Below, piece after piece: positions 25,523-62,797 of a stretch of 64,000 bases of DNA. The stretch's first letter is position 1, and each line of letters opens with the position of its first letter. The translations under genes were made by a program, and so were the position numbers. The notes beneath the pieces are model-generated. The model worked only from the letters and a program-made list of their open reading frames with translations, was not told where the DNA came from and ran no database searches. The stretch comes from Candidatus Niyogibacteria bacterium (GTDB taxonomy: Bacteria > Patescibacteriota > Minisyncoccia > HO2-45-28): contig CP066691.1 in the NCBI GenBank assembly GCA_016432485.1, forward strand, positions 516,709-580,708. Direction: 5' to 3'.

Positions 25523-25552
25523 CAGCCCACGACAGCAAAGCCGTCGTGGGCC
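25523..25552 (-). terminator. intrinsic terminator of the GC-rich inserted gene
   Basis: GCCCACGAC-GGCTTTGCT-GTCGTGGGC followed by TGTTTTAATT on the minus strand. Confidence 0.7.
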
Positions 25553-25581
25553 GAGGGTCAAGGATTCAATAATCCAAGTCC

Positions 25582-26151
25582 CTACTTGCGGGAAACGACG
25601 CGAGAGCCGGCACTCCACCCGAACGGGTGCTTGACCGAGCGGGCCGCAACGTCCCAGTAGCGATCGACGGAGAACCAGCACGCGCGCACAGCCCAGAGCT
25701 TTCCTTTCTTGTCCCTGATGTAGGCGATGCACCACCCGCCATTTTGGTTCTTGAGGAAATTCAGAAAGTGAACAAGGTGGATTTCTTCCTTGTCTCCCAG
25801 CTCTTTCCGGATAGGCTGGTCCACGGACGGTTTCTTGAGCTTGTGGATGTTCAGCTCCGTAGCCGAGACGTTCTCCTCGACCTTACCCTTGAACAGGCGA
25901 TCGAAGTTGGAGCCCGTCCATCCGACATTGGCCTTTTTCAGGGCCTCGTCGTCGCAGACAAACCTTTCCGCGCCGTCCACTCGAACCGTGCCGACGAACT
26001 TGAGGAGGTCGAATTCCGGACTGAGACCGCGAAGGTACTCCTGGAGCCCCTGCGGGTCGTCAATCCATCTCTGCATGGCCTCCTTGTTCATTTCCGGCAG
26101 GTTTTCTGCGATTCGAGAAATGAACTTTCCTGTCTGTTTCTGTCTGTCCAT
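25582..26151 (-). CDS. hypothetical protein in a GC-rich (~56%) islet between yebC and ruvC
   Basis: Start placed at the internal Met with a perfect SD AAAGGAGGAAAAATCGCC-ATG. Lys-rich N-terminus, no recognised family. The overlapping plus-strand ORFs look like antisense artefacts of the high GC. Confidence 0.5.
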   Translation of the reverse strand: MDRQKQTGKFISRIAENLPEMNKEAMQRWIDDPQGLQEYLRGLSPEFDLLKFVGTVRVDGAERFVCDDEALKKANVGWTGSNFDRLFKGKVEENVSATELNIHKLKKPSVDQPIRKELGDKEEIHLVHFLNFLKNQNGGWCIAYIRDKKGKLWAVRACWFSVDRYWDVAARSVKHPFGWSAGSRVVSRK

Positions 26152-26290
26152 GGCGATTTTTCCTCCTTTGGGTTTTCGCCATTTTCGTTTGCCAGAGGGC
26201 CGTCCCAATGACAGCCATAGCCAGAAAATCTTAATTTTTAAGGCCTTTTGGCTATGGCCGCCGGTAAAAAATTTTAAGAACTATGCGTGC

Positions 26291-31830: not shown

Positions 31831-31862
31831 ATTATACACCTACAGTATTTTGTGTCAAGACT
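31831..31862 (-). promoter_or_regulatory. perfect-consensus sigma70 promoter TTGACA-N16-TATAAT for the TrmB gene
   Basis: The minus strand reads TTGACAcaaaatactgtaggtgTATAAT-GGAGG-tataATG. A second TTGACA and a CAAGACTCTTG palindrome lie just upstream and are candidate operators. Confidence 0.65.
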
Positions 31863-33001: not shown

Positions 33002-34111
33002 TTAGCTTTTCATCGGCATAACCAAATAAAGATATGAAACGTCGCGCGGGTTTTGGATTAGAAGAGGTTTGCTTGCTCCCGAAAAACGCAAAATAACGTC
33101 TTCGGAATTTACGGGCTCCAACCCCTCAAGCAAATATCTCTGATTAAAAGACGCTTCAAGATTTTCTCCGGTAATCTGAGCCTTAAGCTGACCGTTGTGC
33201 TCGCCGAGCTCGCTGTCACTGGTGGTTATCTCAAAAATATTGTCCCCGGCGTAAGCGCGCAATTTTACTTCTTTCAGGCGGCCGGAAAAAACGCCGGCTA
33301 ATTTAAGGTTGTCCGTAAGTTCTTTTTTATTCAGAGTAACTTCGGTGCTGAATGCCGACGGAATTATTTGCTCGTAATCGGGGAAGTTTCCCTCAATCAA
33401 TCTGGTAAAATACGAAAAAGAGGGGTGAAGCGCGAAAAGATGCTGGCGGTCAAACTCCAATTCTACGTCTCCTTCAAAATTCTCAATTATTTTTATGAAA
33501 TCAAGGGCTGATTTTCCGGGAAAGAGAAAAGAGTCTATTTTTTCAGTTTTTGAATCAAAGGATTTTTCAGCCAGACGGAAAGAATCGGTGGCCGCCATTT
33601 TAAAAAATGAGCCCGGATTGTTTTTGCTGCCGGAGGAAAAGAAAACGCTTGATATTTCCGGTTTGATATCGGATTCGGAAGCGGCGAAAATCACGCTTTT
33701 CATGTTTGAAAACAATTTTTCCGCGTTGAAAACCAATTTTTGCCCGTTTTTTATTTTAGGCAGTTTCGGAAAGTCTTCCTGATCATAAGCTTTTATTGTG
33801 GTGGAGGTATTTTTAGTAGTCAGATTAATGTTGTTATTTTTTGATTCTAAAAATATTTTTTCGTCGTTTACTGACGATAAAAGAGAAATAATGGGTTTAG
33901 CCTGAATAACCAGTGTTCCTTCTTTTTTTACTTGAGCCGGTATTTTTGTCTCAAAACCGCTGTATAAATCGGTTGACCTGATAAGCAGATGATTTTTTTC
34001 GGCTTTTAAAAATATTCCGTTTAAAACCGGATTGGCGTTTCTCTGATTGGTTTGCCTTTCGGCCAATTGAATACTTTTTTGGAAATGAGTTTTAAAGCAA
34101 GACAACTCCAT
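33002..34111 (-). CDS. dnaN: DNA polymerase III beta sliding clamp
   Basis: 369 aa with a three-domain layout and MELSCFKTHF...N-terminus. Lies immediately downstream of dnaA. Confidence 0.85.
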   Translation of the reverse strand: MELSCFKTHFQKSIQLAERQTNQRNANPVLNGIFLKAEKNHLLIRSTDLYSGFETKIPAQVKKEGTLVIQAKPIISLLSSVNDEKIFLESKNNNINLTTKNTSTTIKAYDQEDFPKLPKIKNGQKLVFNAEKLFSNMKSVIFAASESDIKPEISSVFFSSGSKNNPGSFFKMAATDSFRLAEKSFDSKTEKIDSFLFPGKSALDFIKIIENFEGDVELEFDRQHLFALHPSFSYFTRLIEGNFPDYEQIIPSAFSTEVTLNKKELTDNLKLAGVFSGRLKEVKLRAYAGDNIFEITTSDSELGEHNGQLKAQITGENLEASFNQRYLLEGLEPVNSEDVILRFSGASKPLLIQNPRDVSYLYLVMPMKS

Positions 34112-34319
34112 AATAATAAATTTAATTAATTAAACTGTAGTTGTAGATGTTAGCGTGCATAAGTGTAAAAACCATTTATGTGTTTAGTTTAAACCCTTTT
34201 TAACTATAAAACTGTTTATTTTCTTGTTGATAAATCGTGGAAATGATTTTGATAATTTTCAGTCCGAATTCTTTTTTATAAATCATCAACATTTTTTCAA
34301 CATAATTTTCATAAGATAC
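34112..34319. other. AT-rich dnaA-dnaN intergenic region with DnaA-box-like motifs (candidate oriC part)
   Basis: TGTTGATAA (= TTATCAACA), TTTTGATAA and TCATCAACA are present in a >75% AT region. Confidence 0.4.
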
Positions 34320-35684
34320 TCACTGTTTTTCTTCCTCATATAATTGGGCCCGGATTGTTTTTATTTCTTCTTTGAGGCGGTCGTCTCTTTTAATCTCGTT
34401 GGTTATTTTAGTATAGGCGTGAATGGCGGTTGTATGGTCTCGGCCGCCGAATTTTTGTCCGATATAAGGAAAAGAGCCGTTAAAATCTTCTCTTAGAAGG
34501 TACATCGCTACTTGTCTCGGCTTGACTACCTCCTTCCTTCTGGTTTTCTCAAAAAGAAATTTTTCCTGAATGTCGTAAAATTGCGCGATCTTTCTTATTA
34601 TCTGCTGAGCGCTTAGAACTTTCCTCGGTTTTTCGTTTTTGGTCAGTATTTCTTTTACCTCGGACAAATCCAGAGGCCGCTTTTTCATTTTTGAGCGCAC
34701 GATCACGGAATTAAGCGAACCCTCCATCTCCCTGATATTGGATTGGACGGCTGATGCTATGTATTCCAGTATTTCAAGCGAGGGCTGGTATTCTTGGTTT
34801 GGAGCTGTTTTGGACTGCAGTATTGCCAGCCTGGTTTCGTAGTCCGGTTCTACTATGTCGGCTATCGTGCCTCCCTCAAAACGCGATCTAAGGCGGTCTT
34901 CAATGTTTGGTATTAATTTGGGAGGCCTGTCGGAAGAGAAGATTATTTGTTTATTCGCCTGATGCATGGAGTTGAAAGTGTGAAAAATTTCTTCCTGGGT
35001 AGCGGCTCCGCGGCTGGCAATGAACTGGATATCGTCAATTATCAAAACGTCAAAAGAGCGGTACTTATCTTTAAAAAAGACGGTTTCGTTATTGCGGATT
35101 GCCGCGACCAATTCGTTGGCAAAACGTTCCGCGCTGACGTAATAAACTTTTTTATCGGGATAGTCGGCTTTCATTTTATTTCCTATTGCCTGCATTAAGT
35201 GGGTTTTTCCCAGCCCGACTCCGCCATAAATAAAAAGAGGGTTGTAGAGAACGCCCGGGTTTTTTATTACCGATAGAGCGGAGGCATGAGCCAGCTCATT
35301 GAATATCCCTACGATAAAATTATCCAGAGTATATTTAGGATTGAGGTTTGTTTCGCGGTCGGTGTATATATCGCGAAAATCCATTTGTTCTTCCGTTGAT
35401 TTAGGCTCTGCTTTTTTCTCCTGGACCGTGCCGAACGTCGCTATCTTGAATTCGATTGAACGCACTTCGGGCGAGCGAGCCCGGAGGCATTTTAAAATAT
35501 GTTTTTGGTATTTATCCTCCAGCCACTCTTTAATAAAAGCCGAGGGGGTCCCTATGATTATTTTCCCTTCGTCCTGGTCGGCTATGAACGTATTTTGAAA
35601 CCAAGTCGCGAAATTGGCTTTCGAAACGGTTAATTCTAATTCTCTCAAAATCTCCTTCCAGAGCTCTTCTTTAATCATAATCAT
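34320..35684 (-). CDS. dnaA: chromosomal replication initiator DnaA
   Basis: AAA+ Walker A GGVGLGKTHL, Walker B LIIDDIQF, a C-terminal DnaA-box-binding HTH and an N-terminal domain I. Confidence 0.93.
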   Translation of the reverse strand: MIMIKEELWKEILRELELTVSKANFATWFQNTFIADQDEGKIIIGTPSAFIKEWLEDKYQKHILKCLRARSPEVRSIEFKIATFGTVQEKKAEPKSTEEQMDFRDIYTDRETNLNPKYTLDNFIVGIFNELAHASALSVIKNPGVLYNPLFIYGGVGLGKTHLMQAIGNKMKADYPDKKVYYVSAERFANELVAAIRNNETVFFKDKYRSFDVLIIDDIQFIASRGAATQEEIFHTFNSMHQANKQIIFSSDRPPKLIPNIEDRLRSRFEGGTIADIVEPDYETRLAILQSKTAPNQEYQPSLEILEYIASAVQSNIREMEGSLNSVIVRSKMKKRPLDLSEVKEILTKNEKPRKVLSAQQIIRKIAQFYDIQEKFLFEKTRRKEVVKPRQVAMYLLREDFNGSFPYIGQKFGGRDHTTAIHAYTKITNEIKRDDRLKEEIKTIRAQLYEEEKQ

Positions 35685-35833
35685 CTAAGTTTTTTAAACG
35701 ATTTCTATATTATATCTTTAATGTTTTTTATTTACGAACCACCAAAATTTTACTAAACCCTACTCTGATGTTAATAAGCTGTGGATGATTTGTGAATATT
35801 GTTTAAATTAAAAATATGTGTAAGAATAATCAT
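35685..35833. other. AT-rich region upstream of dnaA / rpmH with DnaA-box-like motifs (candidate oriC part)
   Basis: TGTGGATGA and TGTGAATAT are near-matches to the TGTGGATAA box; the flanking genes are divergently oriented. Confidence 0.4.
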
Positions 35834-35974
35834 ATGTCGCCAAAAAGAACTTATCAGCCCAAAAAACGCAAAAGGAAAAAGACTCACGGTTTCCGAAAAC
35901 GCTCCAGAAGCGCCGGGGGCAAGCGTATTTTGAAGGGCCGGCGCCGGAAAGGCCGCAAGAAGCTTACGGTTTGA
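35834..35974 (+). CDS. rpmH: 50S ribosomal protein L34
   Basis: [23 protein letters not shown]... is the canonical L34 sequence. At 46 aa it falls below the 60-aa cutoff of the ORF track. Confidence 0.9.
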
Positions 35975-36324
35975 TGGCCGCTTTTAAGCGCAGCCGGCGG
36001 CTTTACGATAAAAAAGCGATTAGTCAAGTTTTGCGCCGCGGCCGAAGGATTGAGCGCGGTGGCCTCGTTGTCTATTTTCAAAGTTCTGATAATTCCGCAT
36101 CGCGTCTCGCAGTGGTCGTTTCAAAGAGCGTTGATAAAAGAGCGGTGAGGCGCAATAAAATTAGGCGGCAGATAAGTGAGATAATGCGGGGGCTCATTTT
36201 CGGAATAAAAAAACCCTTGCGTATAATCGTAAGGGTTTTGCCCGAAGCTTCCAAGGCGGACTTTGGGCGGCTGAAAAACGCGCTGGAAGAAATATTCGTA
36301 AATATAAACAATCTAAAAATTTAA
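35974..36324 (+). CDS. rnpA: ribonuclease P protein component
   Basis: Basic ~115-aa protein directly after rpmH, with a KRAVRRNKIRRQI motif. Confidence 0.85.
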   Translation: MAAFKRSRRLYDKKAISQVLRRGRRIERGGLVVYFQSSDNSASRLAVVVSKSVDKRAVRRNKIRRQISEIMRGLIFGIKKPLRIIVRVLPEASKADFGRLKNALEEIFVNINNLKI

Positions 36325-36334
36325 GAATCTTATA

Positions 36335-37111
36335 ATGGCCTGGCTATTAGTAATTTTTAACGAGATTTTTTATCGCCCGCTTTTAAATGCTCTGGTGTGG
36401 CTCACCGGTTTTTTGCCGTTCAATGATTTGGGACTTGCGGTTATTGTTTTGACCGTAGTGGTTAGAATCGTGCTTTTTCCTTTGACCCACCGTTCAATTA
36501 AAACCCAGAACAAAATGAAGCAGATTGAGCCCGAGCTTAAAAAAATAAAAGATAATTTTAAAGATCGCCAGGAACAAGCGCGCCGCACTATGGAACTCTA
36601 TCGCGCTCACGGTATCAATCCCCTTTCCGGAATCCTTTTGCTTTTTTTACAGCTTCCGATTCTTATTGCTCTTTATTTGGTTTTCCGAGAGAGCGTTAAC
36701 ATAGATGCCGCCTATTTATACGGTTTTATCGCCGTTCCGGAGCATGTCAATACGATGTTTTTGGGTTTATTTGACCTTAGTCAGGGGAGCATGATACTTG
36801 CGGCCGCGGCCGCTTTATCGCAGTTTATGCAGATAAAACTTGCTAAGCTGCCTTCCATCGCCCGCAGTTCCTCCCCCGGCGCGAAATCAATGGATTTTGG
36901 CAAGATGATGTCCTGGCAGATGACTTATTTCATGCCGCTTTTGATATTTTTTATAGCCATGCGTTTTCCGTCAGCAGTCAGTCTTTATTGGACAACGCTC
37001 AATATTTTTGCTACAGTGCACGAAGGGATAGTAAGAAAAAAAGCCCAAAAAATTTATGCCGTCGAAGGAAACAGTTCAAAGGATACAAATTCTGATTCAA
37101 AACCTTCTTGA
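36335..37111 (+). CDS. yidC: membrane protein insertase YidC (short form)
   Basis: YidC/Oxa1 core helices (PLTHRSIKTQNKMKQIEPELKKIK, LQLPILIALY). Confidence 0.88.
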   Translation: MAWLLVIFNEIFYRPLLNALVWLTGFLPFNDLGLAVIVLTVVVRIVLFPLTHRSIKTQNKMKQIEPELKKIKDNFKDRQEQARRTMELYRAHGINPLSGILLLFLQLPILIALYLVFRESVNIDAAYLYGFIAVPEHVNTMFLGLFDLSQGSMILAAAAALSQFMQIKLAKLPSIARSSSPGAKSMDFGKMMSWQMTYFMPLLIFFIAMRFPSAVSLYWTTLNIFATVHEGIVRKKAQKIYAVEGNSSKDTNSDSKPS

Positions 37112-37520
37112 AAGAATGGGGTGTTCCGGCTCTGTTGATTTTATTGAGTACCCCGAAAATTTATTTTTCAGCGTGCATACTTCCGACGGCGGAATTTTGA
37201 TAGGAGAGTCTGGTGAAAGACTGAAAGCCATCAATCACATTATTCATAAAATGGCAGAGCGCGAATTCCCCGCGGACTACCCTAGTTTGAAGTTTTTTGT
37301 TGACGTTAACGATTATCAAAAGCAAAAAATAGAAGAACTAAAGGACTTGGCGCGGCTTTCCGCCCAGCGCGTGCGTTATTTTAAAAAAGAAATTGAAATG
37401 CAGCCGATGACCTCTTATGAGCGTCGCATTATTCACGCCACGCTTACCGAGTATCCGGATATTTCCACCCAGAGCACGGGCGTCGGCGAAGAAAGAAGAG
37501 TGGTAATTAAACCTCTTTAA
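37056..37520 (+). CDS. jag: Jag/KhpB-type RNA-binding protein (KH plus R3H)
   Basis: C-terminal R3H motif (SYERRIIHATL). The true start may be the internal ATG at 37116, which would remove the overlap with yidC. Confidence 0.75.
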   Translation: MPSKETVQRIQILIQNLLERMGCSGSVDFIEYPENLFFSVHTSDGGILIGESGERLKAINHIIHKMAEREFPADYPSLKFFVDVNDYQKQKIEELKDLARLSAQRVRYFKKEIEMQPMTSYERRIIHATLTEYPDISTQSTGVGEERRVVIKPL

Positions 37521-40540: not shown

Positions 40541-40924
40541 TTATTCTCCGAAAAACGTCCTAAATTGCGGACTCTTATTGTAAAAGTATAGAAACACCAC
40601 CATTCCGGTATAAGCCGGCAGAAAAGGTATGAATCCCGAAGCCCCGCTTAGGTGAAAGGCCCACGGTTTTTTAAGTTCGCGGGCTTGTGTCCACGCGAAT
40701 ATAGTAAACCAAGCTATACCGTCTATTATAAAACCGACAAGGGGTACTTGGCTAATTAAGTCGCAAAACGAAGCAAAACCAATCATCATTCCGAACTCGG
40801 ACTTGCTTACCATGGGACCGGCCACGGCGGCCGCTTTTTGCGTCGCCAGGCCTTCATTTTTACGGGATTCCTGAAGTTTCAAGTTTCGTTCGCCTTCCTC
40901 GGTTGTAATATTTTCATCAGCCAT
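40541..40924 (-). CDS. small membrane protein
   Basis: 127 aa with 2-3 hydrophobic helices. Confidence 0.4.
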   Translation of the reverse strand: MADENITTEEGERNLKLQESRKNEGLATQKAAAVAGPMVSKSEFGMMIGFASFCDLISQVPLVGFIIDGIAWFTIFAWTQARELKKPWAFHLSGASGFIPFLPAYTGMVVFLYFYNKSPQFRTFFGE

Positions 40925-40932
40925 GTTTTAAA

Positions 40933-42750
40933 TTATTTTTCCTGCGCTATTCCCTGCTTCGCCTTTTTAATCGCTAATAATTGCTGGGGGTCGGAAGTTA
41001 TAATTTGGTCTTCGGTGTAAGACGATATTATTTTGATGGCCACATGTTTGAGGCCGGCGAAAAACAACCCTTCGCCGATATCGGACTCCAGTATCAGGAA
41101 TTTTTCTTCGTCGGTCAGGTTGAAAGTTTTTTGGAGAAGATCAATGGTCGCGGGCGACTGTTTTAAAAGAATCTGGATTGAAGAGTTTGTAATGATGGGC
41201 ACGCCGTAAGGGGAGCGCAAAAAATCGCCCACGTCTTGAGTAATCGTCGCCACTCCCAAAAAATATTTTCTCGCGCGCTTGGCTATGCCGAATAAGAATG
41301 AGGCGCCCTGTTCTTCTTTCATAATCCACCAGGCTTCGTCTATGACCAGAATTCTCTTTTTTAAATTTTTTCGGACAGCGTTCCAGATATGGTGGGTTAT
41401 CAAATACATTGCCACCGGACGCAGTTCGTCCTCCATGTCTCTTACCGAAAAAACCACCAGCTTTTTATTTATATCAACATTTGTAGGCTGGTTGATGAAG
41501 CCGGCCCAAGTGCCCTGGGTGTATTTGCGCATGCGCTGGGCCAATCCTTCGCCGCCTTCCATATTGGCTAAAATCAATTCAAGATCCGAAAGTATCGGCG
41601 GAATTTTTGAAGAAAAATCAGATTCCGGAGTAATGTCGCGCGAAGCGTAAGTTTCGGTGATGGCCCGGTCTAAAATGGAATCCTCTTCCGGCGTAAGTCC
41701 GCCGAGCATTATGCGGAAAAGTCCGACTAAGTTTATGATGTTAGACCTTAAAATATCCGAGGGGTCTTCGTCTTCGCGGGGTTTGGGCAGGTCAAAAGGA
41801 TTAATATGATGCTGGGAAGAAAGAGAGATGTTGAAATATCGGCCGTCAACGGCCTCCGACAGAAATTCATATTCGCGTTCGGGGTCAATCACTATGACAT
41901 CGGTGTCAAACATTAAAGAGCGAAGTATTTCAAGTTTCGTGGCATAACTTTTTCCCGCTCCGGCTTTGGCGAAAATGACCGAATTGTAGTTTTCAAGCGA
42001 GAATCTGTCAAAAAGAACCAGGCTGTTATTATGGCGATTTACGCCGTAAAGAATGCCTCGGTTGGAAGTGAGGTCAAATGAAACAAAAGGGAAAAGACTT
42101 GATATCGGCGAGGAATTAAGTTTGTTGTTGACTCCCAGAATGTCCCGTCCCAGGGGGAAAACAGTCAGGAGGCCGTCATCCTGCTGGAAAAGAGCGGGTT
42201 TGGCGTAAACCAGACGGGATTCAAGCATTGACCTTATTTCCGTTTCGTCCCGGTTGAGTTCTTCCAGAGTGTCGGCATAGATTGTCATATAAAGGCCGAA
42301 AGAAAAAAGTTTTTCCTGCGCCTGTTGCAGTTTGTCGCGCAGTTCCTCCAGGTTTTGATAAGCGGCATCCAGCATCGGGTCCCTAACCAGGCCTTTTTCT
42401 TCGCGCATGTGGATTTGAGACTGGACTTCGGCGACCTTTTTCTGGAGCTGGCGTAAAACTCCGGCCGTATCCATCGGATGGATGTAAATAGATATGTCAA
42501 AAACCTTGTCGAGATTTATGATTGAGCTGAACCAGTTCACGGCCAGATATTTGGGATAGGAGAAAATAAAAATGGTGCGGGCTATTTTTTCCCCGATTTT
42601 TACGTAATTTGAATTTACTTCCAAAGCTGACGGCGCGATGATGTCTTTCAATTCCAAAACCGCGGCCTCGTAAATCTGTTCGGGCTGAATCGCGATTATC
42701 TCGTCGTTTGCCCCCACCTCCTTCTTTTTGAATAAGTCTCCTAAAGCCAT
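40933..42750 (-). CDS. VirB4/TrbE/CagE-family type IV secretion ATPase (C-terminal ATPase part)
   Basis: Walker A FAKAGAGKSYATK, the VirB4-type Walker B LVIDEAWWIM and downstream motifs; 605 aa. Confidence 0.7.
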   Translation of the reverse strand: MALGDLFKKKEVGANDEIIAIQPEQIYEAAVLELKDIIAPSALEVNSNYVKIGEKIARTIFIFSYPKYLAVNWFSSIINLDKVFDISIYIHPMDTAGVLRQLQKKVAEVQSQIHMREEKGLVRDPMLDAAYQNLEELRDKLQQAQEKLFSFGLYMTIYADTLEELNRDETEIRSMLESRLVYAKPALFQQDDGLLTVFPLGRDILGVNNKLNSSPISSLFPFVSFDLTSNRGILYGVNRHNNSLVLFDRFSLENYNSVIFAKAGAGKSYATKLEILRSLMFDTDVIVIDPEREYEFLSEAVDGRYFNISLSSQHHINPFDLPKPREDEDPSDILRSNIINLVGLFRIMLGGLTPEEDSILDRAITETYASRDITPESDFSSKIPPILSDLELILANMEGGEGLAQRMRKYTQGTWAGFINQPTNVDINKKLVVFSVRDMEDELRPVAMYLITHHIWNAVRKNLKKRILVIDEAWWIMKEEQGASFLFGIAKRARKYFLGVATITQDVGDFLRSPYGVPIITNSSIQILLKQSPATIDLLQKTFNLTDEEKFLILESDIGEGLFFAGLKHVAIKIISSYTEDQIITSDPQQLLAIKKAKQGIAQEK

Positions 42751-42761
42751 AATGTTAAAGT

Positions 42762-43415
42762 TTAAGTTCTAATTTGCGGCGCGTGTCCTTTTTCCAATTC
42801 CCCCGGGTTGAATAATCCGTAGAAGAGTTCAACCGCCTCTTCGGTGTTTAGGGGCGCGGTTCGCGTTCCGGTTGAAGCAATGGCTCCCGAAACCGTTTCG
42901 GCTCTTTGCCAGAGTTGATTTTTATGTTCCTCAAATTTTTCATCGCTTAGTTGTTTGTCTTCTTTTTTTACGCCGAAAAGCCCTTTGAATATCCCGCCCA
43001 GTCCGTTTTTTTTGCCGATCTCAATTAAGGGAGGGGCAAAAGAGACGACGATGTAGAAATTTTTGGTCACGATTTTTGTGGTTTCAACAAAAGTTCTGAT
43101 GAATTCAATGTATTCGCGTGTCTGTATTTTCAATAATTCATTAGTCTGGTCGCGTTCTGTTTCGCGCAGAGTTTCAAGGTAGGGTTCAATATTGAGCCTG
43201 CGTGACTGGATCACGATTTGCACCGAGAAATCCAGCGCGTTTAAAAAGTTTTGATATTGCGCGGTAATGGCCTCTTGCTCCTCGTTTGACCTTAAGGCGA
43301 AATTCAAAGACGAAGCCATCAAAACCATATGTAGGCTTTTATCTTCGGTGATTATTATGCCGTCGCGTATTTCTCTTATCGGCACGAATTCCTGCGCTGA
43401 TAGTGGTTTTGCCAT
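42762..43415 (-). CDS. probable N-terminal domain of VirB4 encoded as a separate ORF
   Basis: 217 aa ending 11 nt before the ATPase ORF. Combined length of 822 aa equals a typical VirB4. Confidence 0.4.
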   Translation of the reverse strand: MAKPLSAQEFVPIREIRDGIIITEDKSLHMVLMASSLNFALRSNEEQEAITAQYQNFLNALDFSVQIVIQSRRLNIEPYLETLRETERDQTNELLKIQTREYIEFIRTFVETTKIVTKNFYIVVSFAPPLIEIGKKNGLGGIFKGLFGVKKEDKQLSDEKFEEHKNQLWQRAETVSGAIASTGTRTAPLNTEEAVELFYGLFNPGELEKGHAPQIRT

Positions 43416-43820
43416 TTACTTAATTTTCTCTTTAACATCTAAAGACCAAGCCAGGTCCTTTAATTTGCTTTCGGTGGTTTTAGGTAAAACGAATTCTTGT
43501 TTGGGAGCCGAAATTTTTTGGGCTTTGGGTTTTTTGGTCTCGCTTCTTTTCCAGATATAAAGTTTTGATTTGGTGTAATATGATACGGCGTTGGCCATTA
43601 CGTTTATGAAAGGCTGATTATGCACTTTATAAAATGCCAAAGCCAAAGCCAGCCCGGCGACCGGCAAACCCAGAAGCACTGTCAGAAAAAAGGGCAGAAA
43701 AACATATATTATGAAAACCGTAGCGACGCCCCCCAGAAGATAGATAAACTGCTTCAGGGTCAGCGGCCCGAAAATTTTGTCTTCAACCTCTATGAATTGC
43801 GGAACGCTAAATTGTCTCAT
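43416..43820 (-). CDS. VirB3/PrgI-like small 2-TM protein
   Basis: 134 aa with two TM helices, located immediately upstream of VirB4, which is the conserved VirB3 position. Confidence 0.4.
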   Translation of the reverse strand: MRQFSVPQFIEVEDKIFGPLTLKQFIYLLGGVATVFIIYVFLPFFLTVLLGLPVAGLALALAFYKVHNQPFINVMANAVSYYTKSKLYIWKRSETKKPKAQKISAPKQEFVLPKTTESKLKDLAWSLDVKEKIK

Positions 43821-43822
43821 AT

Positions 43823-44452
43823 TTATTTTGGGGGCTCTTTATAAGGGTCGGCTTTATCCGGATAACGATTTTCTTTTCGGGCTTGCTCTGTTTCTTCGGA
43901 CAATGATTCCCCGGGCATAAAAACTTTTTCTTCAAGCCTGGTTTCAAACGGCGAAGTTTTTAAACTTTTAAACTCTTCTGTCCCCTTTATTTCACGATTC
44001 GGAGTTTGCGTCTCGGTTTCAACTGATTTTTCGGGAGGAACGGCAGGAACATGGGAAATAGGAGCAACAGGAGAAACGGGTGGGACAAAAGGAGTGGGCG
44101 CGGTCGGCGTTTCGGAAATAACTTCCTCACCAACCGCGTGTATTTTTTTCAGAGATTCTTTGACTTTTGAAAAAATCTGCGCGTTTATCTCCTGCGCGAT
44201 TTTTTTAGTCGTTTCCGGATCGGTTCCGAGACGTCCGGTTAAATTAGAAATGAAATCGCGCGGATGCGTGACTCCAAGCATCAGAAGTCCGGTTTCATCG
44301 TCCAGTTCTCCCATTTTGTCAATTTGGAGGCCGTATTTTTTGCCAATCGCCTGAACAATATCAGCTGTATCTATGCTGGTGATGGCATTTTGCAGTTCTT
44401 TCGGCAGGCCTTTATATTTTTCAAAAATTTGTTCGTTAGTTAGTTGAGACAT
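43823..44452 (-). CDS. hypothetical soluble protein with Pro-rich linker
   Basis: 209 aa; the stop overlaps the next gene's start; contains PTAPTPFVPPVSPVAP. Confidence 0.4.
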   Translation of the reverse strand: MSQLTNEQIFEKYKGLPKELQNAITSIDTADIVQAIGKKYGLQIDKMGELDDETGLLMLGVTHPRDFISNLTGRLGTDPETTKKIAQEINAQIFSKVKESLKKIHAVGEEVISETPTAPTPFVPPVSPVAPISHVPAVPPEKSVETETQTPNREIKGTEEFKSLKTSPFETRLEEKVFMPGESLSEETEQARKENRYPDKADPYKEPPK

Positions 44453-46140
44453 TATTTATTCTTTTTTTCTTTATCTGATTCGGCCTTTTGCTTAGACATT
44501 TTTTCTACTTCCTCCAGACTTTCGTTCATGGCATTTATTTTTTCCCCGACAGTAGCCTTGGGATTATTTAAAATTGCCGCTCTTTTTGCCTTCCTGCTTC
44601 TTTCGTCCAAAACTTTTTCAATTGCTTCTCGTCGCGCTCTATTCAGGAATTGCAGCCTAGAGGTCTTTAAGTTTTTAAGGGTGTCTGTGCTGTAAGAAGA
44701 GTATTGTTGCGTGTAGCGTTTTATTTCGGGTTGATCGAGCGTTGATGCTTTAGTTATGCCGCGCCCGACAAATGGCATGGAGCGCACAAACTTCGCGGCG
44801 CGCGTTTCACTTTCAGCAATAGTTTTGGCGATAGGCGCGGTGTATCTTTTGCCGACCGTTCCGGCATATCCGACAGCCCACTTGCGGGCGGATTTTACTC
44901 CTTTTTCGGCCCATTCGGCGGCTTTGCCGCCCATTTGTTTGGCCACAAGAACGCTTGCCATAAGCATTATGATTAAAAGAAGGTAGTAAGCAATCATTGA
45001 AAAACTGGTAACAAAGGCCGTGCTTTCGGCTTGCCCGCCTTTTATTCCCGTCAGCAGGTCTTTGGCTTTGCCCGAAGCAATCATTTCAACCGTAACGCCA
45101 AAAAGGAAGAAAAACGCCGGCGCGAAAAATGCCTGTTTGAGCAAAGTTGACCACCATTGTCTGGCATAAGAATCCAATCCCGGGATTGCGTAGAATAGAA
45201 ACGCGACGGGAGAAAGAATCATTAAAAACCATAAAATTACCACCCGGATTAAAAGCGATAGTCCGGCAAAAGCTAGCGCAAATATGGCGACAAGAATAAA
45301 AACCGTTACGCCGAGCATTGCCACTGTCATCTGAATCAGAGTATTAGGCAGGTCTTTTTGCGCGGTTTCAAGCTTTTTTCGCAGGCTTTCTTCCTCACTG
45401 AGGAGTTTTTTTATTCCGGGATCTTCCGGAGCGCTCTCGCCGACAATAAGCTTTTCCGTCACGCTCGCCAATTGTTCCTGTATTTTCGATATGTCGCTGA
45501 ATCCGAACTTGGCGCTTTTAAACATCTGATTCGGATTTAATCCGGCAAGAAATTTGACCGAGAGGGACGCCGAACTTTTTCCCTGCGCCCCCCCCGGCAG
45601 AAAAAATCCGGTCATAAGATTTGAAGAAAAGACAACGTATTGCGTAAGCAAAAACGAAAAGTTGATGAAGAGGGCGGCTATTATCAGGCGGGGCAGAAGT
45701 TTTTTGACTCCGAACGTATCTACCTGCAGGATGGTCGCGATGGCGATGGTTAAAAGTATAAAAATGAAAAAGAGGTTCGCGCTGTCGCGGGCTATGGTCC
45801 ACCCCTTGTAGATGGCGTCAAGATTATAGGTTGCCGGATCAAGCGTGAATGCAGTTACCAGGTCAAAGATAATTCCGAAAACCTGAAACATTGCTGATAC
45901 GAACATGAGTGCCGCGAATACCATCCAGCTTACTGCGGTAAGAATTGGGCAGCCGAGAAACCAGCCGACCCCTGACAAATCAGCACAAGATGCTTTTGAA
46001 AGTTCGGCGGCAACGCCGGTGTTTTGAGCGTAAGCGGCTGCGGGCTGCAAATACAGAATTGAGATTATCAGCATTAAAATCGCTACCGTTATTAAAGCGG
46101 CCGATTTCTTACTTTTTAATTTCTTTTTTAAAAAATTCAT
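44452..46140 (-). CDS. polytopic membrane protein, VirB6/TrbL-like
   Basis: Signal peptide then at least 8 TM helices over ~400 aa and a ~130-aa charged C-terminal tail; sits in the T4SS context. Confidence 0.35.
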   Translation of the reverse strand: MNFLKKKLKSKKSAALITVAILMLIISILYLQPAAAYAQNTGVAAELSKASCADLSGVGWFLGCPILTAVSWMVFAALMFVSAMFQVFGIIFDLVTAFTLDPATYNLDAIYKGWTIARDSANLFFIFILLTIAIATILQVDTFGVKKLLPRLIIAALFINFSFLLTQYVVFSSNLMTGFFLPGGAQGKSSASLSVKFLAGLNPNQMFKSAKFGFSDISKIQEQLASVTEKLIVGESAPEDPGIKKLLSEEESLRKKLETAQKDLPNTLIQMTVAMLGVTVFILVAIFALAFAGLSLLIRVVILWFLMILSPVAFLFYAIPGLDSYARQWWSTLLKQAFFAPAFFFLFGVTVEMIASGKAKDLLTGIKGGQAESTAFVTSFSMIAYYLLLIIMLMASVLVAKQMGGKAAEWAEKGVKSARKWAVGYAGTVGKRYTAPIAKTIAESETRAAKFVRSMPFVGRGITKASTLDQPEIKRYTQQYSSYSTDTLKNLKTSRLQFLNRARREAIEKVLDERSRKAKRAAILNNPKATVGEKINAMNESLEEVEKMSKQKAESDKEKKNK

Positions 46141-46163
46141 TTATGGCGAAATTTTTATGATTT

Positions 46164-47507
46164 TTATGACCCCGGACACGCCTGAAGTTCTGAAAGAAGC
46201 GAATCAAGTTTTTCCTGGAATTCGTCTGCTTGTTGGTTGGCCGCGTCTATATCGTCTTGCGATGCCGATTGGTTTGCCGAATCAACCGCCTGCGTCCCGA
46301 CATCGCTTAATTCCTGGGGACTGTTTGTCGTTTCCGCTTTTACTCGCGAGTTTTCGTAGTCGCTAAGCGCGGCGCGAGCCGATTTAAGTTCGCTTTTTAT
46401 GTCATCAAGGTTTTTTTGCGCTTCGGCAATTTCTTCGTTTCGCGGTTGCGTCCCGCAGCTATGTAATTTGTTAAGCGTCTGAATTGTTTGAGTCAGTGTA
46501 TTTGATGACCGCTCTTTTGCTTTTATGTAGCCGTTCGTTAGGTTTATGGCATCAGTTAAGAGGGGGGTTATTCCCTTTCGGCTGTTATTGAGAAGTCCGG
46601 AATAGTCCGGATTGGATGACCCGCCCGAAGACAGTATGCCGTCTCTGCCGGTGCCGCTTAGGGCGCTATTTAAAAGTTGTACTACGACCGTTGAGATAAG
46701 TTCGTTTATTTCATCCGACACTGCTGTTTTGATAGCTGTGTATTCGTCCGGAAGTTCAAGTTTTTTAGCCACATAACTTCCCGGCGTTACGGTTTCTTCC
46801 CTTAAGCAGGGTTTGTCAGTGCCCGCGGCTTCGCTAAAAGCGATTTCTTTGGAATACTCCGCGCATCTTTTCCAGCTGAGAAATCCTCCGGACGCTTGAG
46901 ATTCAAGTTTCAGGCCGGTTACCTTTTCAAGTATGGCCCGCTGCGTCTGGTCCATTTGGATTAGAATGGAGCCGAAAGCGTTGTTGGCCACATTAGCGGT
47001 GGTAATTGAAATAAAGCCGGTCCAGCCGTAGGTTTCAAAGGTGTTATAGAGCGCGTCCACATTGGCAATAAACCTATCAAGAGTACAGACTGCTTGTTGT
47101 CTTTGAGCCGAGACCAAACCCAGAACAATGTCTATTCTAAAAGGACTGCAGATATTCGGCGCGCCATTAGCGATAAGGCCATCAACAAAAATACCAAAGG
47201 CTTCGTTTCCGGCTTTTCTTAAATATCCTTCCCAGTCGGTTACGAAAAGAGGTTTGCCGTTAAAGCCGTTTCGTATCCAGCTTTTTATGTTGTCGGACAT
47301 AGTCCTGATTAGAGCGACTCCTATAGCGTTGACCAACGGATCAAGGACATAATCTTTGACCGCCTCTGATCCAGCCGGCAGCTCTATTGTAAAAAATGTT
47401 ACAGCCTCGGCTTTTGGCGGCGAAAAAGGAAATAGTGTAGCGAGCAGAATCGCGACAATAACCGGGACAATATATTTTTGAAATCGGACGCTTCGCTTAA
47501 AAATCAT
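46164..47507 (-). CDS. secreted protein with C-terminal coiled coil
   Basis: N-terminal signal/TM and a C-terminal ~120 aa with heptad-like Q/E/K-rich sequence. Confidence 0.4.
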   Translation of the reverse strand: MIFKRSVRFQKYIVPVIVAILLATLFPFSPPKAEAVTFFTIELPAGSEAVKDYVLDPLVNAIGVALIRTMSDNIKSWIRNGFNGKPLFVTDWEGYLRKAGNEAFGIFVDGLIANGAPNICSPFRIDIVLGLVSAQRQQAVCTLDRFIANVDALYNTFETYGWTGFISITTANVANNAFGSILIQMDQTQRAILEKVTGLKLESQASGGFLSWKRCAEYSKEIAFSEAAGTDKPCLREETVTPGSYVAKKLELPDEYTAIKTAVSDEINELISTVVVQLLNSALSGTGRDGILSSGGSSNPDYSGLLNNSRKGITPLLTDAINLTNGYIKAKERSSNTLTQTIQTLNKLHSCGTQPRNEEIAEAQKNLDDIKSELKSARAALSDYENSRVKAETTNSPQELSDVGTQAVDSANQSASQDDIDAANQQADEFQEKLDSLLSELQACPGS

Positions 47508-58937: not shown

Positions 58938-60065
58938 ATGGATGTTCAAATTAAAAAATTGCCGAAATCAGAAATTGAAATATCCGGAGAAATTCCCGCG
59001 GACGAATTTGAGGCGCATTACCAAAGCGCTCTTAAAGAACTGAACGAAAAATCATCCGTTGCGGGGTTCAGGCCCGGGCATATTCCGGAAAATATGCTTG
59101 TTGAAAAAATAGGCGAAGATTCGGTTTTGGAACACGCGGCCGAACACGCGCTTGAGGAGGCATATCCGAAAATACTTGAAGAAAATAAAATTGATGCCTT
59201 GGGACAACCGCGAATAACCATAACTAAAATAGCGCGTCAAAACCCCCTGGGTTTTAAGATTCAGACCGCGGTTTTGCCCGAAATAAAACTTCCCGACTAT
59301 AAAAATATCGCCGCAGGCATTAGCGCCCGCATAGATGAGATAAAAGTGGAAGAAAAAGAAATTGAAGAGGCACTTAACTTTTTAAGAAAATCCAAATCCA
59401 AAAACACCGAGAACACCGAGTCGCAAAACACCGAGTCACATGATTCGGACGGCCGTCCGAATCAGATTACTGGGACGAATCAGATTACCGAGACGAAAAA
59501 ACCGGAGGGATTGTCGGAGGGATTGTCGGAGGGGCCGGAAAGCGACGATGAATTCGCAAAAAGTTTCGGACAACAGGACCTTAATGGTTTAAAAAAACTT
59601 CTTGAAGAAAACATAAGACAGGATAAAACAACTAAAGCGCGAGAGTCGCGTAGAATGGAAATAATGGATAAAATTTCGTCCTTAGTCGTTGCGGAAATTC
59701 CCCAGATTTTAATTGATTCAGAAAAAGAAAAAATGTCAGCCGAACTTCGTTCCTCAATTGAAAATATGGGTATGAAATGGGAGGACTATTTGAATCACAT
59801 TAAAAAAACAGAAGAAGAATTAAAGAAAGATTGGGCGGGCGAAGCCGAAAAACGCGCCCGTTACGCTCTGATTTTAAGAGAGATCGCGAATGCCGAAAGC
59901 ATCGCGCCGTCAGACGAAGAATTAAACGGTTTTGTCGTAAGTTCTCTCGCACAATATCCCGCGCCCGAGCGCGCCAAAATTGACAAAGAGCGTTTTAAGG
60001 ACTATGCTTACGGTATATTAAGAAACGAAAAGGTTTTTAATTTTTTGGAATCCAAAACTAAATAA
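58938..60065 (+). CDS. tig: trigger factor (with internal low-complexity repeat insertion, short C-terminus)
   Basis: N-terminal ribosome-binding domain (GFRPGHIPE). The central region contains tandem-repeat-encoded [11 protein letters not shown] and GLSEGLSEG plus a palindrome. Confidence 0.75.
59398..59535. repeat. cluster of short tandem repeats and a 22-nt perfect palindrome inside tig
   Basis: (AACACCGAG)x3, (GAATCAGATTAC)x2, (GGAGGGATTGTC)x2, and GATTCGGACGGCCGTCCGAATC, which is related to the TCCGAAC family. Confidence 0.85.
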
Positions 60066-60067
60066 AA

Positions 60068-60676
60068 ATGGACGAAGAATACTATAATTATTTAATTCCG
60101 ACCGTAATTGAAAAATCGCAATTCGGCGAGCGGGCTTACGATATTTATTCCAGACTTTTGAAAGAAAGGATTGTTTTTGTTTCGGGGCCGATTGCCGACC
60201 CGATTGCCAATACCGTAATAGCCCAGCTTTTATTTTTGGAATCGCAAGACCCCAAAAAAGATATTTCTCTTTACATAAATTCTCCCGGGGGTTCGGTTTC
60301 GGCGACCTTAGCTATTTATGACACTATGCAGCATATTAAGCCGGATGTTTCAACCATCTGCGTCGGATTTGCCGCATCGGGCGCGGCCATTCTTTTAGCC
60401 GCGGGCGCCAAAGGCAAGCGTTTTTCCCTGCCAAATTCGGAAATAATGATTCATCAGGTTATAGGCGCGGCCGAAGGGCAGGCGACCGAAATTGAAATAT
60501 CCGCGCGCCACATTTTGCGAGTCAAAGAAAAGTTAAATAAAATTCTGGCCGAGCATACTAACCAGCCATTGGATAAAATAGAAAAAGACACTGACCGCGA
60601 CTTTTTTATGGATGCCGATGAAGCCAAAAAATACGGCATTCTGGACAAAATTGTAAGGTCAAAAAACGGAAAATAA
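60068..60676 (+). CDS. clpP: ATP-dependent Clp protease proteolytic subunit
   Basis: Catalytic Ser in GFAASGAA, His in MIHQ, and Asp; 202 aa; in the tig-clpP arrangement. Confidence 0.92.
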
Positions 60677-60685
60677 AAAATAAAG

Positions 60686-60738
60686 CCCCCTCCAGCATGC
60701 GTCTGCTGGAGGGGGTGCCCCCCCATTGGGGGGTTTTG
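60686..60738 (+). terminator. tandem intrinsic terminator after clpP
   Basis: CCCCCTCCAGCA-TGCG-TCTGCTGGAGGGGG followed by CCCCCCATTGGGGGG and TTTT. Confidence 0.7.
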
Positions 60739-60970
60739 GGCGGCCCACTCTAGTCGTGCAGCACGGGTTCACCTTCTCTCTCACAAGGATCGAGAAGCTG
60801 TGAGATCCCGAGGGCCACAGACAGTTGTGGACGGCCCGATGGTATACTACGCCTGGCCAGCCGCAACGCGATTTAGCCAGGGAAGAGCGGGTGACCGGCA
60901 GACCTTGATTTGACTCTGGTCTACGCGACCTTGTTTACAAGGTCTGCCGGTTCCCCCCGCGGCGCCGTGG

Positions 60971-61057
60971 TCAGGCGGCGGTCATGCCGTCGTGGACGAG
61001 GGCGGTCATCTTGGGGTAAATGGTGCCCTTGGCACCGGTGGGTGATCGTGACTGCAT
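60971..61057 (-). CDS. candidate 28-aa mini-ORF (MQSRSPTGAKGTIYPKMTALVHDGMTAA) inside a GC-rich structured locus
   Basis: Perfect SD AAAGGAGGAAAAATG; a consensus promoter lies 120 nt upstream. No homology is assessable, so it could equally be part of a non-coding RNA. Confidence 0.25.
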   Translation of the reverse strand: MQSRSPTGAKGTIYPKMTALVHDGMTAA

Positions 61058-61181
61058 TTTTCCTCCTTTTCTCCCCCCGGATTTCTCCTCTTTATAGGGG
61101 GATTAGACGGCGTATGGGCCTACTTTCCCTCGCGCAAGGCCTGTCCTTGCGGGGGGTGCTTCATTCCAAGGTACATCATCC

Positions 61182-61210
61182 ATTATACTCCCGGGCTTTT
61201 AATATGTCAA
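61182..61210 (-). promoter_or_regulatory. perfect-consensus sigma70 promoter TTGACA-N17-TATAAT overlapping the gpmI stop codon
   Basis: The minus strand reads TTGACAtattaaaagcccgggagTATAAT and points into the GC-rich non-coding region at 60720-61180. Confidence 0.6.
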
Positions 61211-62797
61211 GTCCTTGATATTTTCCATTTTATCCGCTAAAGAAATGCCGGTCATCTCCGCGGGTTTTGCCAGACCCAAAAGTTCAAGCGCGGTTGGCGC
61301 GACATCGGTCAAAGTCCCTTTTACCTCATTATATTTTTTCAAAATTTCTTCGTTTGAACGCTCTTTTTTGGATTCAAAATCTTTTATCGCGATAAAAAAC
61401 GGCACGGGATTTGACGTATGTTTGGTTCTTTTTTCTCCGGTTATCCGGTATTGTTTTTCTTCCGCGTTGCCGTGATCTCCGGTCACAATAACCGCTCCTC
61501 TAAGTTCCAAAACGCGCGGAATGATTTTTCCAAGCGCTTCATCCAGCGTTTCAACCGCCTTTACGGTCGCCTCAAAGTCTCCGGTGTGGCCGACCATATC
61601 GGCATTGGCGAAATTAACCAAAATGAAATCGTATTTTTCAAGAGATTCCAGAACTTTGTCGGTTACGGCCTCGGCCGACATTCGCGGGAATTCGTCAAAG
61701 TGGGCGGTTAAAACCGAAGGAATTAAAATTCGGTCTTCTCCCGGAAAAGCTTTTTCCCGGCCGCCGTTGAAAAAATAAGTAACATGCGCGTATTTTTCCG
61801 TTTCGGCTATATGAACCTGCTTTAATCCGGCGTCAGCAATGATTTTAGCCAGCGAGAGTCTGATATCGAGCGGAGAAAAAGCAACCTCGGCTTTAAAAGC
61901 CGGATCGTATTGGGTCATTGTTACAAAAAAAAGATTGTTTATTTTCGTCCTCGGAAATTTGTCAAACCCGTCGGCGATAAAGGCGCCGGTCAGTTCCCGC
62001 GCGCTGTCTTCGCGGTAGTTGAAAAATACGGCGGCGTCATTATCCTGAATTCTGCCCGCGGGCCTTCCGGCTTCAGCTAAAAACCCGGGCTCAATGAATT
62101 CATCGGTGAGGCCCTCTTTGTAGCTTTTTTCTATGTAGAGAGGCGCGTTTTCATAAGGCCGGCCTTTGTCCAAAGCCAAGAGATTATATGTTTTTTCAAT
62201 AAGTTCCCATTGGTTGTCGCGGTCCATCGCGAATCTCCGGCCGATAACTGAAGCGATTTTGGCCTCGGGATAATTCTGAGCCAATCTGGATTCCAGAAAC
62301 GCAAAAAGTTTTGAGGCTTCCTGCGGCGGAGCGTCTCGGCCGTCAGTAAAAAGATGGAGATATAGCTCATCCAGTCCGTTCTTTCGGGCCAGCTCCAGGA
62401 GGGCATAAACATGGTCAATATAGGCGTGCACTGAACCCGAAGAAAAAAGCCCGATCAGATGCAGGCGCGAATTATTTTTTTTGACGTGACTTACGGCTTT
62501 TTTAAAAGAGGGATTTTCAAAAAAACTTCCGTCGCGAATTGCCATTATGATGCGCGGGAGATGAGTGTAAATAACGCGGCCGGCCCCGATGGTCAAATGT
62601 CCAACTTCAGAATTGCCTTCTTCACCCCACGGAAGTCCGACGGCGGCACCCGAGGCCTGCAGGGTGGTGAAAGGGTAAAATTTTTCAAGATGTTCAAAAT
62701 TAGGCCGCTTTGCCAGACGTAAAGGCGACTCGGAAGTTTTGGCGTTCACGCCGTAGCCGTCAAGTATTATAAGTACGACGGGCTTATAGGTCATCAT
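61199..62797 (-). CDS. gpmI: 2,3-bisphosphoglycerate-independent phosphoglycerate mutase
   Basis: VVLIILDGYG start, metal-binding Asp/His/Ser motifs of iPGM, 532 aa. Confidence 0.92.
   Translation of the reverse strand: MMTYKPVVLIILDGYGVNAKTSESPLRLAKRPNFEHLEKFYPFTTLQASGAAVGLPWGEEGNSEVGHLTIGAGRVIYTHLPRIIMAIRDGSFFENPSFKKAVSHVKKNNSRLHLIGLFSSGSVHAYIDHVYALLELARKNGLDELYLHLFTDGRDAPPQEASKLFAFLESRLAQNYPEAKIASVIGRRFAMDRDNQWELIEKTYNLLALDKGRPYENAPLYIEKSYKEGLTDEFIEPGFLAEAGRPAGRIQDNDAAVFFNYREDSARELTGAFIADGFDKFPRTKINNLFFVTMTQYDPAFKAEVAFSPLDIRLSLAKIIADAGLKQVHIAETEKYAHVTYFFNGGREKAFPGEDRILIPSVLTAHFDEFPRMSAEAVTDKVLESLEKYDFILVNFANADMVGHTGDFEATVKAVETLDEALGKIIPRVLELRGAVIVTGDHGNAEEKQYRITGEKRTKHTSNPVPFFIAIKDFESKKERSNEEILKKYNEVKGTLTDVAPTALELLGLAKPAEMTGISLADKMENIKDLTY

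Follow-up and report, generated by a model that had tools for sequence, protein, structure and literature searches.

A GC-rich insertion between clpP and gpmI of Candidatus Niyogibacteria as a possible horizontally acquired transcription unit for an orphan structured small RNA

In a stretch of 64,000 nucleotides from Candidatus Niyogibacteria, tiny groundwater bacteria of the Parcubacteria within the candidate phyla radiation (contig CP066691.1; hereafter the window, with positions counted from its first letter), the convergent genes clpP and gpmI are separated by a GC-rich element of roughly half a kilobase. The element is absent from the same site in the relatives we sampled, it has the anatomy of a complete transcription unit on the minus strand, its composition is foreign to the host, and part of its predicted RNA is strongly folded on the promoter strand only. 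Our tentatively preferred reading, for which we claim somewhat less than even confidence, is that the element was acquired horizontally and is a transcription unit complete in itself, with an orphan structured small RNA (sRNA) as its product. Horizontal acquisition of an insertion of ~0.54 kb is, on sequence comparison, probable; any function of the RNA we infer.

In the proposed scenario a ~490-nt RNA would be made from the minus strand under a consensus sigma-70 promoter that has its -35 box in the lengthened gpmI C-terminus. Transcription would stop at a strong intrinsic terminator, and the insert would also provide the terminators of both flanking genes. The 5' third of the RNA (~200 nt) would be mRNA-like, with an unstructured leader, a Shine-Dalgarno (SD) sequence AAGGAGG and a 28-codon open reading frame (ORF), while the 3' ~300 nt would be strongly and strand-specifically folded into a hairpin of 14-17 bp, an 11-bp hairpin, a 100-nt rod and the terminator. 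Such an RNA may act as an orphan structured sRNA, possibly bifunctional by means of the mini-ORF, and would be a member of no known RNA family.

Anatomy of the insertion

The neighbourhood consists of housekeeping genes in the order pnp, NYN-domain gene, rpsO, tig (58938-60065, plus), clpP (60068-60676, plus), the gap, gpmI (61199-62797, minus) and rny. From the clpP stop (60676) to the gpmI stop (61199) the gap measures 522 nt and has a GC content of 59.8%, compared to 45.2% for the window. The window has 14 non-coding stretches that are 150 nt or longer; just two of them have a GC content of 50% or more, and both are in this gap. Five independent Logan assemblies cross both junctions with an element identical to that of the window, which therefore is no assembly artefact or chimera. 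The runs that contain the locus, from aquifer samples, belong to the series SRR121133xx-121134xx and SRR43434xx. None of the 10 ORFs inside the element has ever been called as a gene (exact look-up), and the element is non-coding by every annotation consulted. Pfam scans of the 60 window ORFs revealed no transposase, integrase, reverse transcriptase, TnpB or Cas gene. The features of the element are as follows (coordinates, strand, description):

60677..61222, between clpP (plus) and gpmI (minus): lineage-specific insertion of ~520-545 bp, left boundary uncertain by ~10 nt
61199..61222, minus: C-terminal extension of gpmI (..ENIKDLTY*), which goes 7 residues beyond the end of the relatives' proteins, runs into the insert and holds the -35 box
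61182..61210, minus: sigma-70 consensus promoter TTGACA-N17-TATAAT (-35 box 61210-61205, -10 box 61187-61182), score 12/12
60684..61176, minus: predicted primary transcript of ~490 nt, from the promoter and terminator positions
61069..61176, minus: 5' "leader" with a 7-bp hairpin (61151-61133) and C/G runs, not above shuffled sequences
61062..61068, minus: SD-like AAGGAGG, with an ATG 4 nt downstream
60971..61057, minus: 28-codon ORF MQSRSPTGAKGTIYPKMTALVHDGMTAA with ATG start, ~118 nt from the predicted transcription start
60889..60956, minus: long hairpin with a 14-bp perfect stem plus extension, pair probability 1.0
60853..60880, minus: 11-bp hairpin CUGGCUA..UGGCCAG, pair probability 0.92-0.97
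60738..60837, minus: irregular 100-nt rod hairpin of ~33-35 bp with several G-U pairs, pair probabilities ~0.9-1.0
60718..60737, plus: hairpin CCCCCC-AUUG-GGGGGG followed by UUUU, candidate clpP terminator
60677..60715, minus: intrinsic terminator with a 12-bp stem (9 GC pairs), a 6-nt loop and a CUUUAUUUUUU tail, pair probability 0.99

The promoter matches the consensus at all positions, and the gpmI stop codon (61201-61199) sits in its spacer; transcription is predicted to start near 61175. Promoters of this quality are found four times in the 64-kb window, against ~0.02 expected by chance, which indicates that consensus promoters are really used in this genome. The other three are located at 31858 (minus), 31919 (plus) and 54585 (minus); two of them point away from each other in the space that separates a gene for a TrmB-like regulator from an unknown ORF. 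No plus-strand promoter-like site was found inside the element in the promoter scan.

The predicted RNA is closed by the terminator at 60715-60677, the sole terminator downstream of gpmI. With the promoter inside gpmI and this terminator in common, the RNA could arise both from its own promoter and by read-through from gpmI. On the opposite strand the hairpin at 60718..60737 likely terminates clpP; its T-run is too short to be listed by the terminator scan.

A preliminary description of this locus, made from the sequence letters, had pointed out the high GC content, a minus-strand TTGACA-N17-TATAAT promoter over the gpmI stop codon, a 13-bp inverted repeat, and an SD sequence with a 28-codon ORF ~120 nt downstream of the promoter (the ORF runs from 61057 to 60971). 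All of these are present as described and exceed chance expectation, and the inverted repeat proved longer than first noticed. The minus-strand terminator is an addition to that inventory.

Predicted fold of the RNA

Folding z-scores were computed against dinucleotide shuffles. The whole predicted transcript has a minimum free energy (MFE) of -233 kcal/mol (z = -6.1), and significant structure is confined to the 3' 300 nt, as is seen when the segments are scored separately:

61176-61067, 5' leader segment: z = -0.97 on the minus strand, -1.20 on the plus strand
61066-60982, ORF segment: z = -0.51 on the minus strand, -0.21 on the plus strand
60981-60847, hairpin region: z = -4.35 on the minus strand, -5.16 on the plus strand
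60846-60737, 3' rod segment: z = -4.07 on the minus strand, -1.43 on the plus strand

In the folding models the RNA thus divides into an mRNA-like 5' third and folded 3' two-thirds. The inverted repeat CCGGCAGACCTTG / CAAGGTCTGCCGG forms the long hairpin, where its arms lengthen to 19 nt (60889-60907 and 60938-60956), and the loop of this hairpin holds a 7-nt alternative partner, CAAGGUC, as a direct repeat. Being a perfect palindrome at the DNA level, the hairpin region folds equally well on the plus strand. The 3' rod, in contrast, is significantly structured on the minus strand only. Structure that appears solely on the promoter strand argues for a fold at the RNA level and not at the DNA level, and in our models this strand asymmetry is the best evidence for a selected RNA fold on that strand, be it here or in a donor.

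The preliminary description had suggested either a leader plus micro-protein or an unclassified structured RNA. The transcription-unit anatomy with a structured RNA bears out that suggestion in part; the leader (z = -1.0) and the ORF (z = -0.5), however, fold at chance level.

The gpmI/clpP site in relatives and populations

The nearest GTDB representatives by gpmI are Parcubacteria/Patescibacteria with no more than 51% identity. In closer relatives, which were fetched via exact-protein look-up, the element is absent and the site is differently occupied. In L073 and L075 (gpmI ~77% identical) gpmI and clpP are convergent with 5 bp between the stop codons (L073:6575-6581; L075:6575-6580). In L088 (gpmI 77% identical) the same gap contains an unrelated 293-nt non-coding filler (L088:3033-3325), which folds strongly (z = -6.4 and -5.6) but lacks a promoter and any Rfam match, and has in common with the window element only a 15/16-nt string, CCGCAAG(G)ACAGGCC. 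An M24 peptidase gene occupies the site in L089 (L089:2572-3717), and a gene for a major facilitator superfamily (MFS) transporter together with a 114-residue ORF does so in L078/79 (L078:6431-8059). Different and unrelated occupants across relatives mark the convergent gap as a variable spot, in which the element is one occupant among several; on this comparison of sequences the element is a lineage-specific insertion. A comparison of the C-termini gave the 7-residue extension of the window gpmI listed above. In a further relative, L080 (GCA_964574495.1), with 95% nucleotide identity in tig-clpP, the contig stops 26 nt before the clpP stop (corresponding to window position 60650), shortly ahead of the place at which the element would start. 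As a separate observation, L073:2886-3020 encodes a 44-residue bAvd (PF22296) fragment, possibly the remnant of a diversity-generating retroelement, which has no counterpart near the window element.

Variation within the population is concentrated in small patches. Other assemblies differ from the window by 8 single nucleotide polymorphisms packed into 61484-61571 (88 nt of gpmI), and by none elsewhere in 5.4 kb. The assembly L010 carries a patch at 61041-61066, around the start of the mini-ORF, with 5 substitutions and a 3-nt insertion, the indel being located upstream of the ATG. Tight variant patches of this kind have the pattern typical of short recombination imports, and the L010 patch means that a diverged allele of the element must exist in the population. 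In addition, contigs from four samples end at one 30-mer, 61174-61203 (k-1), which is approached from both sides (Logan contigs L006, L007 and L009 at 61203; L085 and L086 at 61174). These shared ends imply a structural branch in the population, at the gpmI-side edge of the element or at the predicted transcription start. At the clpP-side edge the contigs are unbroken.

Homology searches returned nothing related. Neither blastn, nhmmer nor tblastx against all fetched loci, including 62 GTDB loci of the gpmI relatives with up to 51% identity, found similarity to the element, and no second copy exists in the 64-kb window or in any fetched locus. Against phages and plasmids blastn gave chance 30-mers only; exact-pattern scans of viral contigs with five patterns gave no match, and a metagenome scan with one exact pattern gave a single chance match in coding DNA of 66% GC. 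A concatenated six-frame protein query of the element showed no homology. A single-sequence covariance model of the 3' rod, run over the window and 51 loci (478 kb) of the candidate phyla radiation (CPR), found only itself.

Known RNA families were searched as well. At gathering score, Rfam 15 found in the whole window one tRNA only, at 26-97. At E<=10, the 701-nt locus (~15 bits) and sub-regions of 131 nt and 135 nt (8-14 bits) gave nothing meaningful; the listings contain chance hairpin or terminator matches only (mir-6012, frnS and the like), far under their gathering scores. No covariance-model match was obtained for signal recognition particle (SRP) RNA, 6S RNA, OLE, ROOL, GOLLD, HEARO, raiA or any other Rfam 15 family. 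A tmRNA (RF00023 and permuted forms) is rejected: ARAGORN reports none at default, 95, 90 or 80% thresholds, Rfam has no match, and there is no T-loop of the GGUUCGAnUCC type. An intron-split tRNA is rejected too, with no ARAGORN call down to 90% when introns are allowed and only mutually inconsistent calls at 80%.

Competing explanations and related systems

Several points weigh against an orphan structured sRNA. By segment z-scores the 5' 200 nt fold no better than chance. The G-U pairs overall do not favour the minus strand (7 on the minus versus 19 on the plus strand), and inference of the strand from such counts supports neither. High GC content by itself raises the hairpin potential, though the shuffles control for composition. 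No homologues were found with which the fold or the ORF could be compared by covariation or conservation; this result is provisional, as the exact-match scans of viral and metagenome data miss homologues below ~95% identity. Neutral junk DNA would account equally well for the absence from relatives. Being unconserved, the element counts as a strain-level curiosity rather than as a new universal RNA, and a claim of a new RNA class is not supportable.

The most serious competitor, although we consider it doubtful, is a neutral remnant of foreign DNA: a convergent gap prone to recombination would have taken up a high-GC fragment (from a host, a phage or a neighbouring organism) whose promoter, SD and hairpins are donor leftovers or chance, and which has no role beyond terminating both flanking genes. 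The composition is indeed foreign, given 60% versus 45% GC, a high GC content at third codon positions (GC3) in the ORF, and a strong SD in a host that hardly uses any. The preliminary description had set its own proposal against a foreign remnant with no conservation, and the comparisons largely returned the latter picture: the element is missing from the syntenic site of all sampled relatives, whose gaps hold other unrelated inserts, and no homologue was found. The contig breaks and variant patches cluster around the element in several samples. Moreover, the window contains a second GC3-rich orphan ORF at 25582-26208, which suggests that the genome carries other such DNA. This ORF (minus strand, 208 residues) has no Pfam match, a GC content of 0.56 and a GC3 of 0.73, is foreign-looking, and shows a GC peak of 0.62-0.70 at its 3' end (25550-25700). 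A mere leftover, on the other hand, fits poorly with a 12/12 promoter of the kind the genome really uses, correctly paired with a strong terminator, and with a strand-specific fold of the 3' rod. The genome is very compact (837 kb, densely coding), which makes 0.5 kb of junk unusual, and the element is identical across many samples.

A coding remnant was tried separately and rejected, since the GC3 periodicity is suggestive only in the mini-ORF and directly after it, and no protein homology was found.

That the element is a micro-protein gene, with the 28-residue peptide as main product and the flanking RNA as mere 5' and 3' untranslated regions (UTRs), appears unlikely. Its attraction lies in a 7-nt SD only 4 nt from an ATG whose A and U are predicted to be unpaired, and in an ORF segment that is mRNA-like and unstructured. 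The GC-rich third codon positions (GC3 0.8-0.87 in the frame of the mini-ORF, versus 0.42-0.49 in tig, clpP and gpmI) resemble those of real genes of high-GC bacteria, the periodicity being suggestive only inside and just beyond the mini-ORF. The frame is kept open in the L010 variant (MRSRAPTG...), with the 3-nt indel falling before the ATG; the same patch, however, alters 2 of the first 5 residues.

The "perfect SD" which the preliminary description took as a sign of a micro-protein turned out to be a weak argument. Leaders of host genes (with predicted starts e.g. at 58938, 60068, 62797 and 35684) are AT-rich (28% GC), and the 5-mer core of the SD occurs at only 4 of the 60 gene starts. GGAGG-N4-9-start sites number 31 in the window; 28 do not coincide with a gene start, and the majority of the 31 fall within genes. 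By chance, about 0.04-0.12 such sites would be expected in 0.5 kb. The SD is therefore atypical for a host that starts its genes independently of SD sequences, and it is weak evidence of translation. It would fit an origin in an SD-using, high-GC donor. The GGAGG core is, furthermore, predicted to be mostly paired (unpaired probabilities 0.01-0.69). Neither a hydrophobic segment nor a recognisable motif is present in the peptide, and when 5.8e9 and 1.84e9 proteins, among which such short peptides are seldom annotated, were searched with the 43-residue peptide from stop to stop, no homologue was found. A micro-protein would also leave the strongly folded 290-nt 3' part unexplained. A type I toxin-antitoxin system is rejected on account of the missing hydrophobic helix and of the missing plus-strand promoter-like site inside the element.

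Very unlikely, in our judgement, is a non-autonomous mobile element (a miniature inverted-repeat transposable element (MITE), a palindrome-associated element or a highly diverged intron-like one) inserted at the site. Presence and absence do differ between relatives, subterminal hairpins accompany a weak inverted similarity of the ends (AATAAAGCCCC vs ATTAAAAGCCCG), a 13-nt inverted repeat flanks the element (60663-60675 and 61219-61231), and the contigs of four samples break at its gpmI-side edge. The inverted similarity of the ends, however, extends over ~8-9 nt only, there is no target-site duplication, and the element is single-copy in the window and the fetched loci; a MITE or other non-autonomous transposon is rejected on these grounds. 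The clpP-side arm of the flanking repeat is native clpP sequence that is present too in relatives without the element, no contig breaks at this edge, and no transposase, reverse transcriptase or TnpB is encoded among the 60 window ORFs. As to an intron, the element has no match to the group I model RF00028, a model that Patescibacterial group I introns can escape (PMC13011429). Nor does the element interrupt a gene whose expression would depend on splicing: promoter and terminator are its own, gpmI has an in-frame stop ahead of the element, and a second exon cannot be drawn.

A highly diverged housekeeping RNA (RNase P, tmRNA, 6S or SRP RNA) missed by standard models is largely refuted and hardly credible: size, GC content, strong promoter and terminator would fit, yet no such family matches at E<=10 (locus ~15 bits, sub-regions 8-14) and ARAGORN finds no tRNA-like domain even at 80% thresholds. 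RNase P RNA (RF00010/RF00011) had to be taken seriously, because RnpA is encoded in the window (35971-36324), so that an RNase P RNA gene must exist in the genome, and because CPR RNase P RNAs are often diverged and missed at standard cut-offs (Lui et al., PMC8172020). All diverged CPR RNase P RNAs of that study were, however, recovered with RF00010 at lowered thresholds (PMC8172020). By eye, GAGGGAAAGUAGGCCC (61131-61116) and GUGAACCCGUGCUG (~60772-60759) recall CR-I and CR-V of RNase P RNA. These strings pair only as 6 bp with a bulge, no P4, P2, P1 arrangement can be drawn, and the CR-V-like string is locked in the local 33-bp rod with a pair probability near 1. RNase P RNA is thus rejected on covariance-model and folding grounds. 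The element shares with the diverged CPR RNase P RNAs (PMC8172020) a CPR host with RnpA, a high GC content, a length of ~0.4-0.5 kb and a position under Rfam gathering thresholds; unlike them, it lacks even a sub-threshold covariance match, a P4 pseudoknot cannot be drawn for it, and relatives do not have it at the syntenic site. The earlier judgement that the locus is not RNase P RNA, tmRNA or SRP RNA stands, and the Rfam scan proposed with it returned no known family at either threshold.

To return to the preferred reading of a structured sRNA unit, two groups of known RNAs resemble the element, without family membership being implied. Type I 3'UTR-embedded sRNAs possess an internal promoter (e.g. 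MicL in cutC and DapZ in dapB, in the classification of Miyakoshi, Chao and Vogel). The layout is the same here: the promoter lies in the 3' end of the upstream coding sequence, with the -35 box inside the last gpmI codons, the RNA would be co-directional, and the terminator is common with the gpmI mRNA. Unlike these sRNAs the predicted RNA is far longer (~490 nt), it derives from an insertion that is absent from relatives and not conserved with the host gene, and it includes an SD-led ORF. Dual-function RNAs, which both act as RNAs and encode small proteins, include RNAIII of S. aureus (514 nt, encoding the 26-residue delta-haemolysin), SgrS/SgrT, SR1/SR1P and AzuCR/AzuC. Like RNAIII, the predicted RNA would be a multi-hairpin molecule of ~0.5 kb with a tiny ORF in the 5' third and a large structured 3' part. 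It differs in showing no sequence or Rfam similarity to any of them, and in a host that normally is not SD-led.

To our knowledge almost nothing is known about regulatory RNAs in CPR/Patescibacteria. In genomes as compact as theirs, a promoter-bearing non-coding unit of 0.5 kb is conspicuous. If expressed, the element would be among the first candidate sRNAs or dual-function RNAs of this group, and a complete foreign cassette of sigma-70 promoter, SD and terminator would have been gained by an organism that starts its genes without SD sequences. At the speculative end, and with little probability in our estimate, ~0.5-kb RNA-only cassettes that move between CPR strains could form a class not described so far, of which the element would be the first member to be sampled. 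A consensus promoter of its own, a mini-ORF and a folded domain of 300 nt would belong to each cassette, which could be a bifunctional regulator or a selfish RNA gene, perhaps acquired from the host of the episymbiont. In that case the diverged allele in L010 and the branch at 61174-61203 in four samples would be traces of cassette exchange.

The locus also has the signature on which the GC-rich intergenic region (GC-IGR) and DIMPL pipelines nominate structured non-coding RNAs, namely an unusually long, GC-rich intergenic region in an AT-richer genome (PMC6429828, PMC8632094, PMC11109978). Candidates of these pipelines become motifs only with a structure that is supported by homologues, and none was found for the element.

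Elsewhere in the window, an origin-type neighbourhood is located at 33002-37520, with dnaN and dnaA (minus strand) followed by rnpA, yidC and a jag/R3H gene (plus strand). A 208-nt gap within its dnaA/rnpA region (34112-34319, 22.6% GC) is probably oriC. Finally, a minus-strand cluster at 40541-47507 combines ORFs without Pfam match with genes for a VirB4/TraG-like P-loop ATPase and a PrgI-family protein; it probably encodes a type IV secretion or conjugation-like apparatus.

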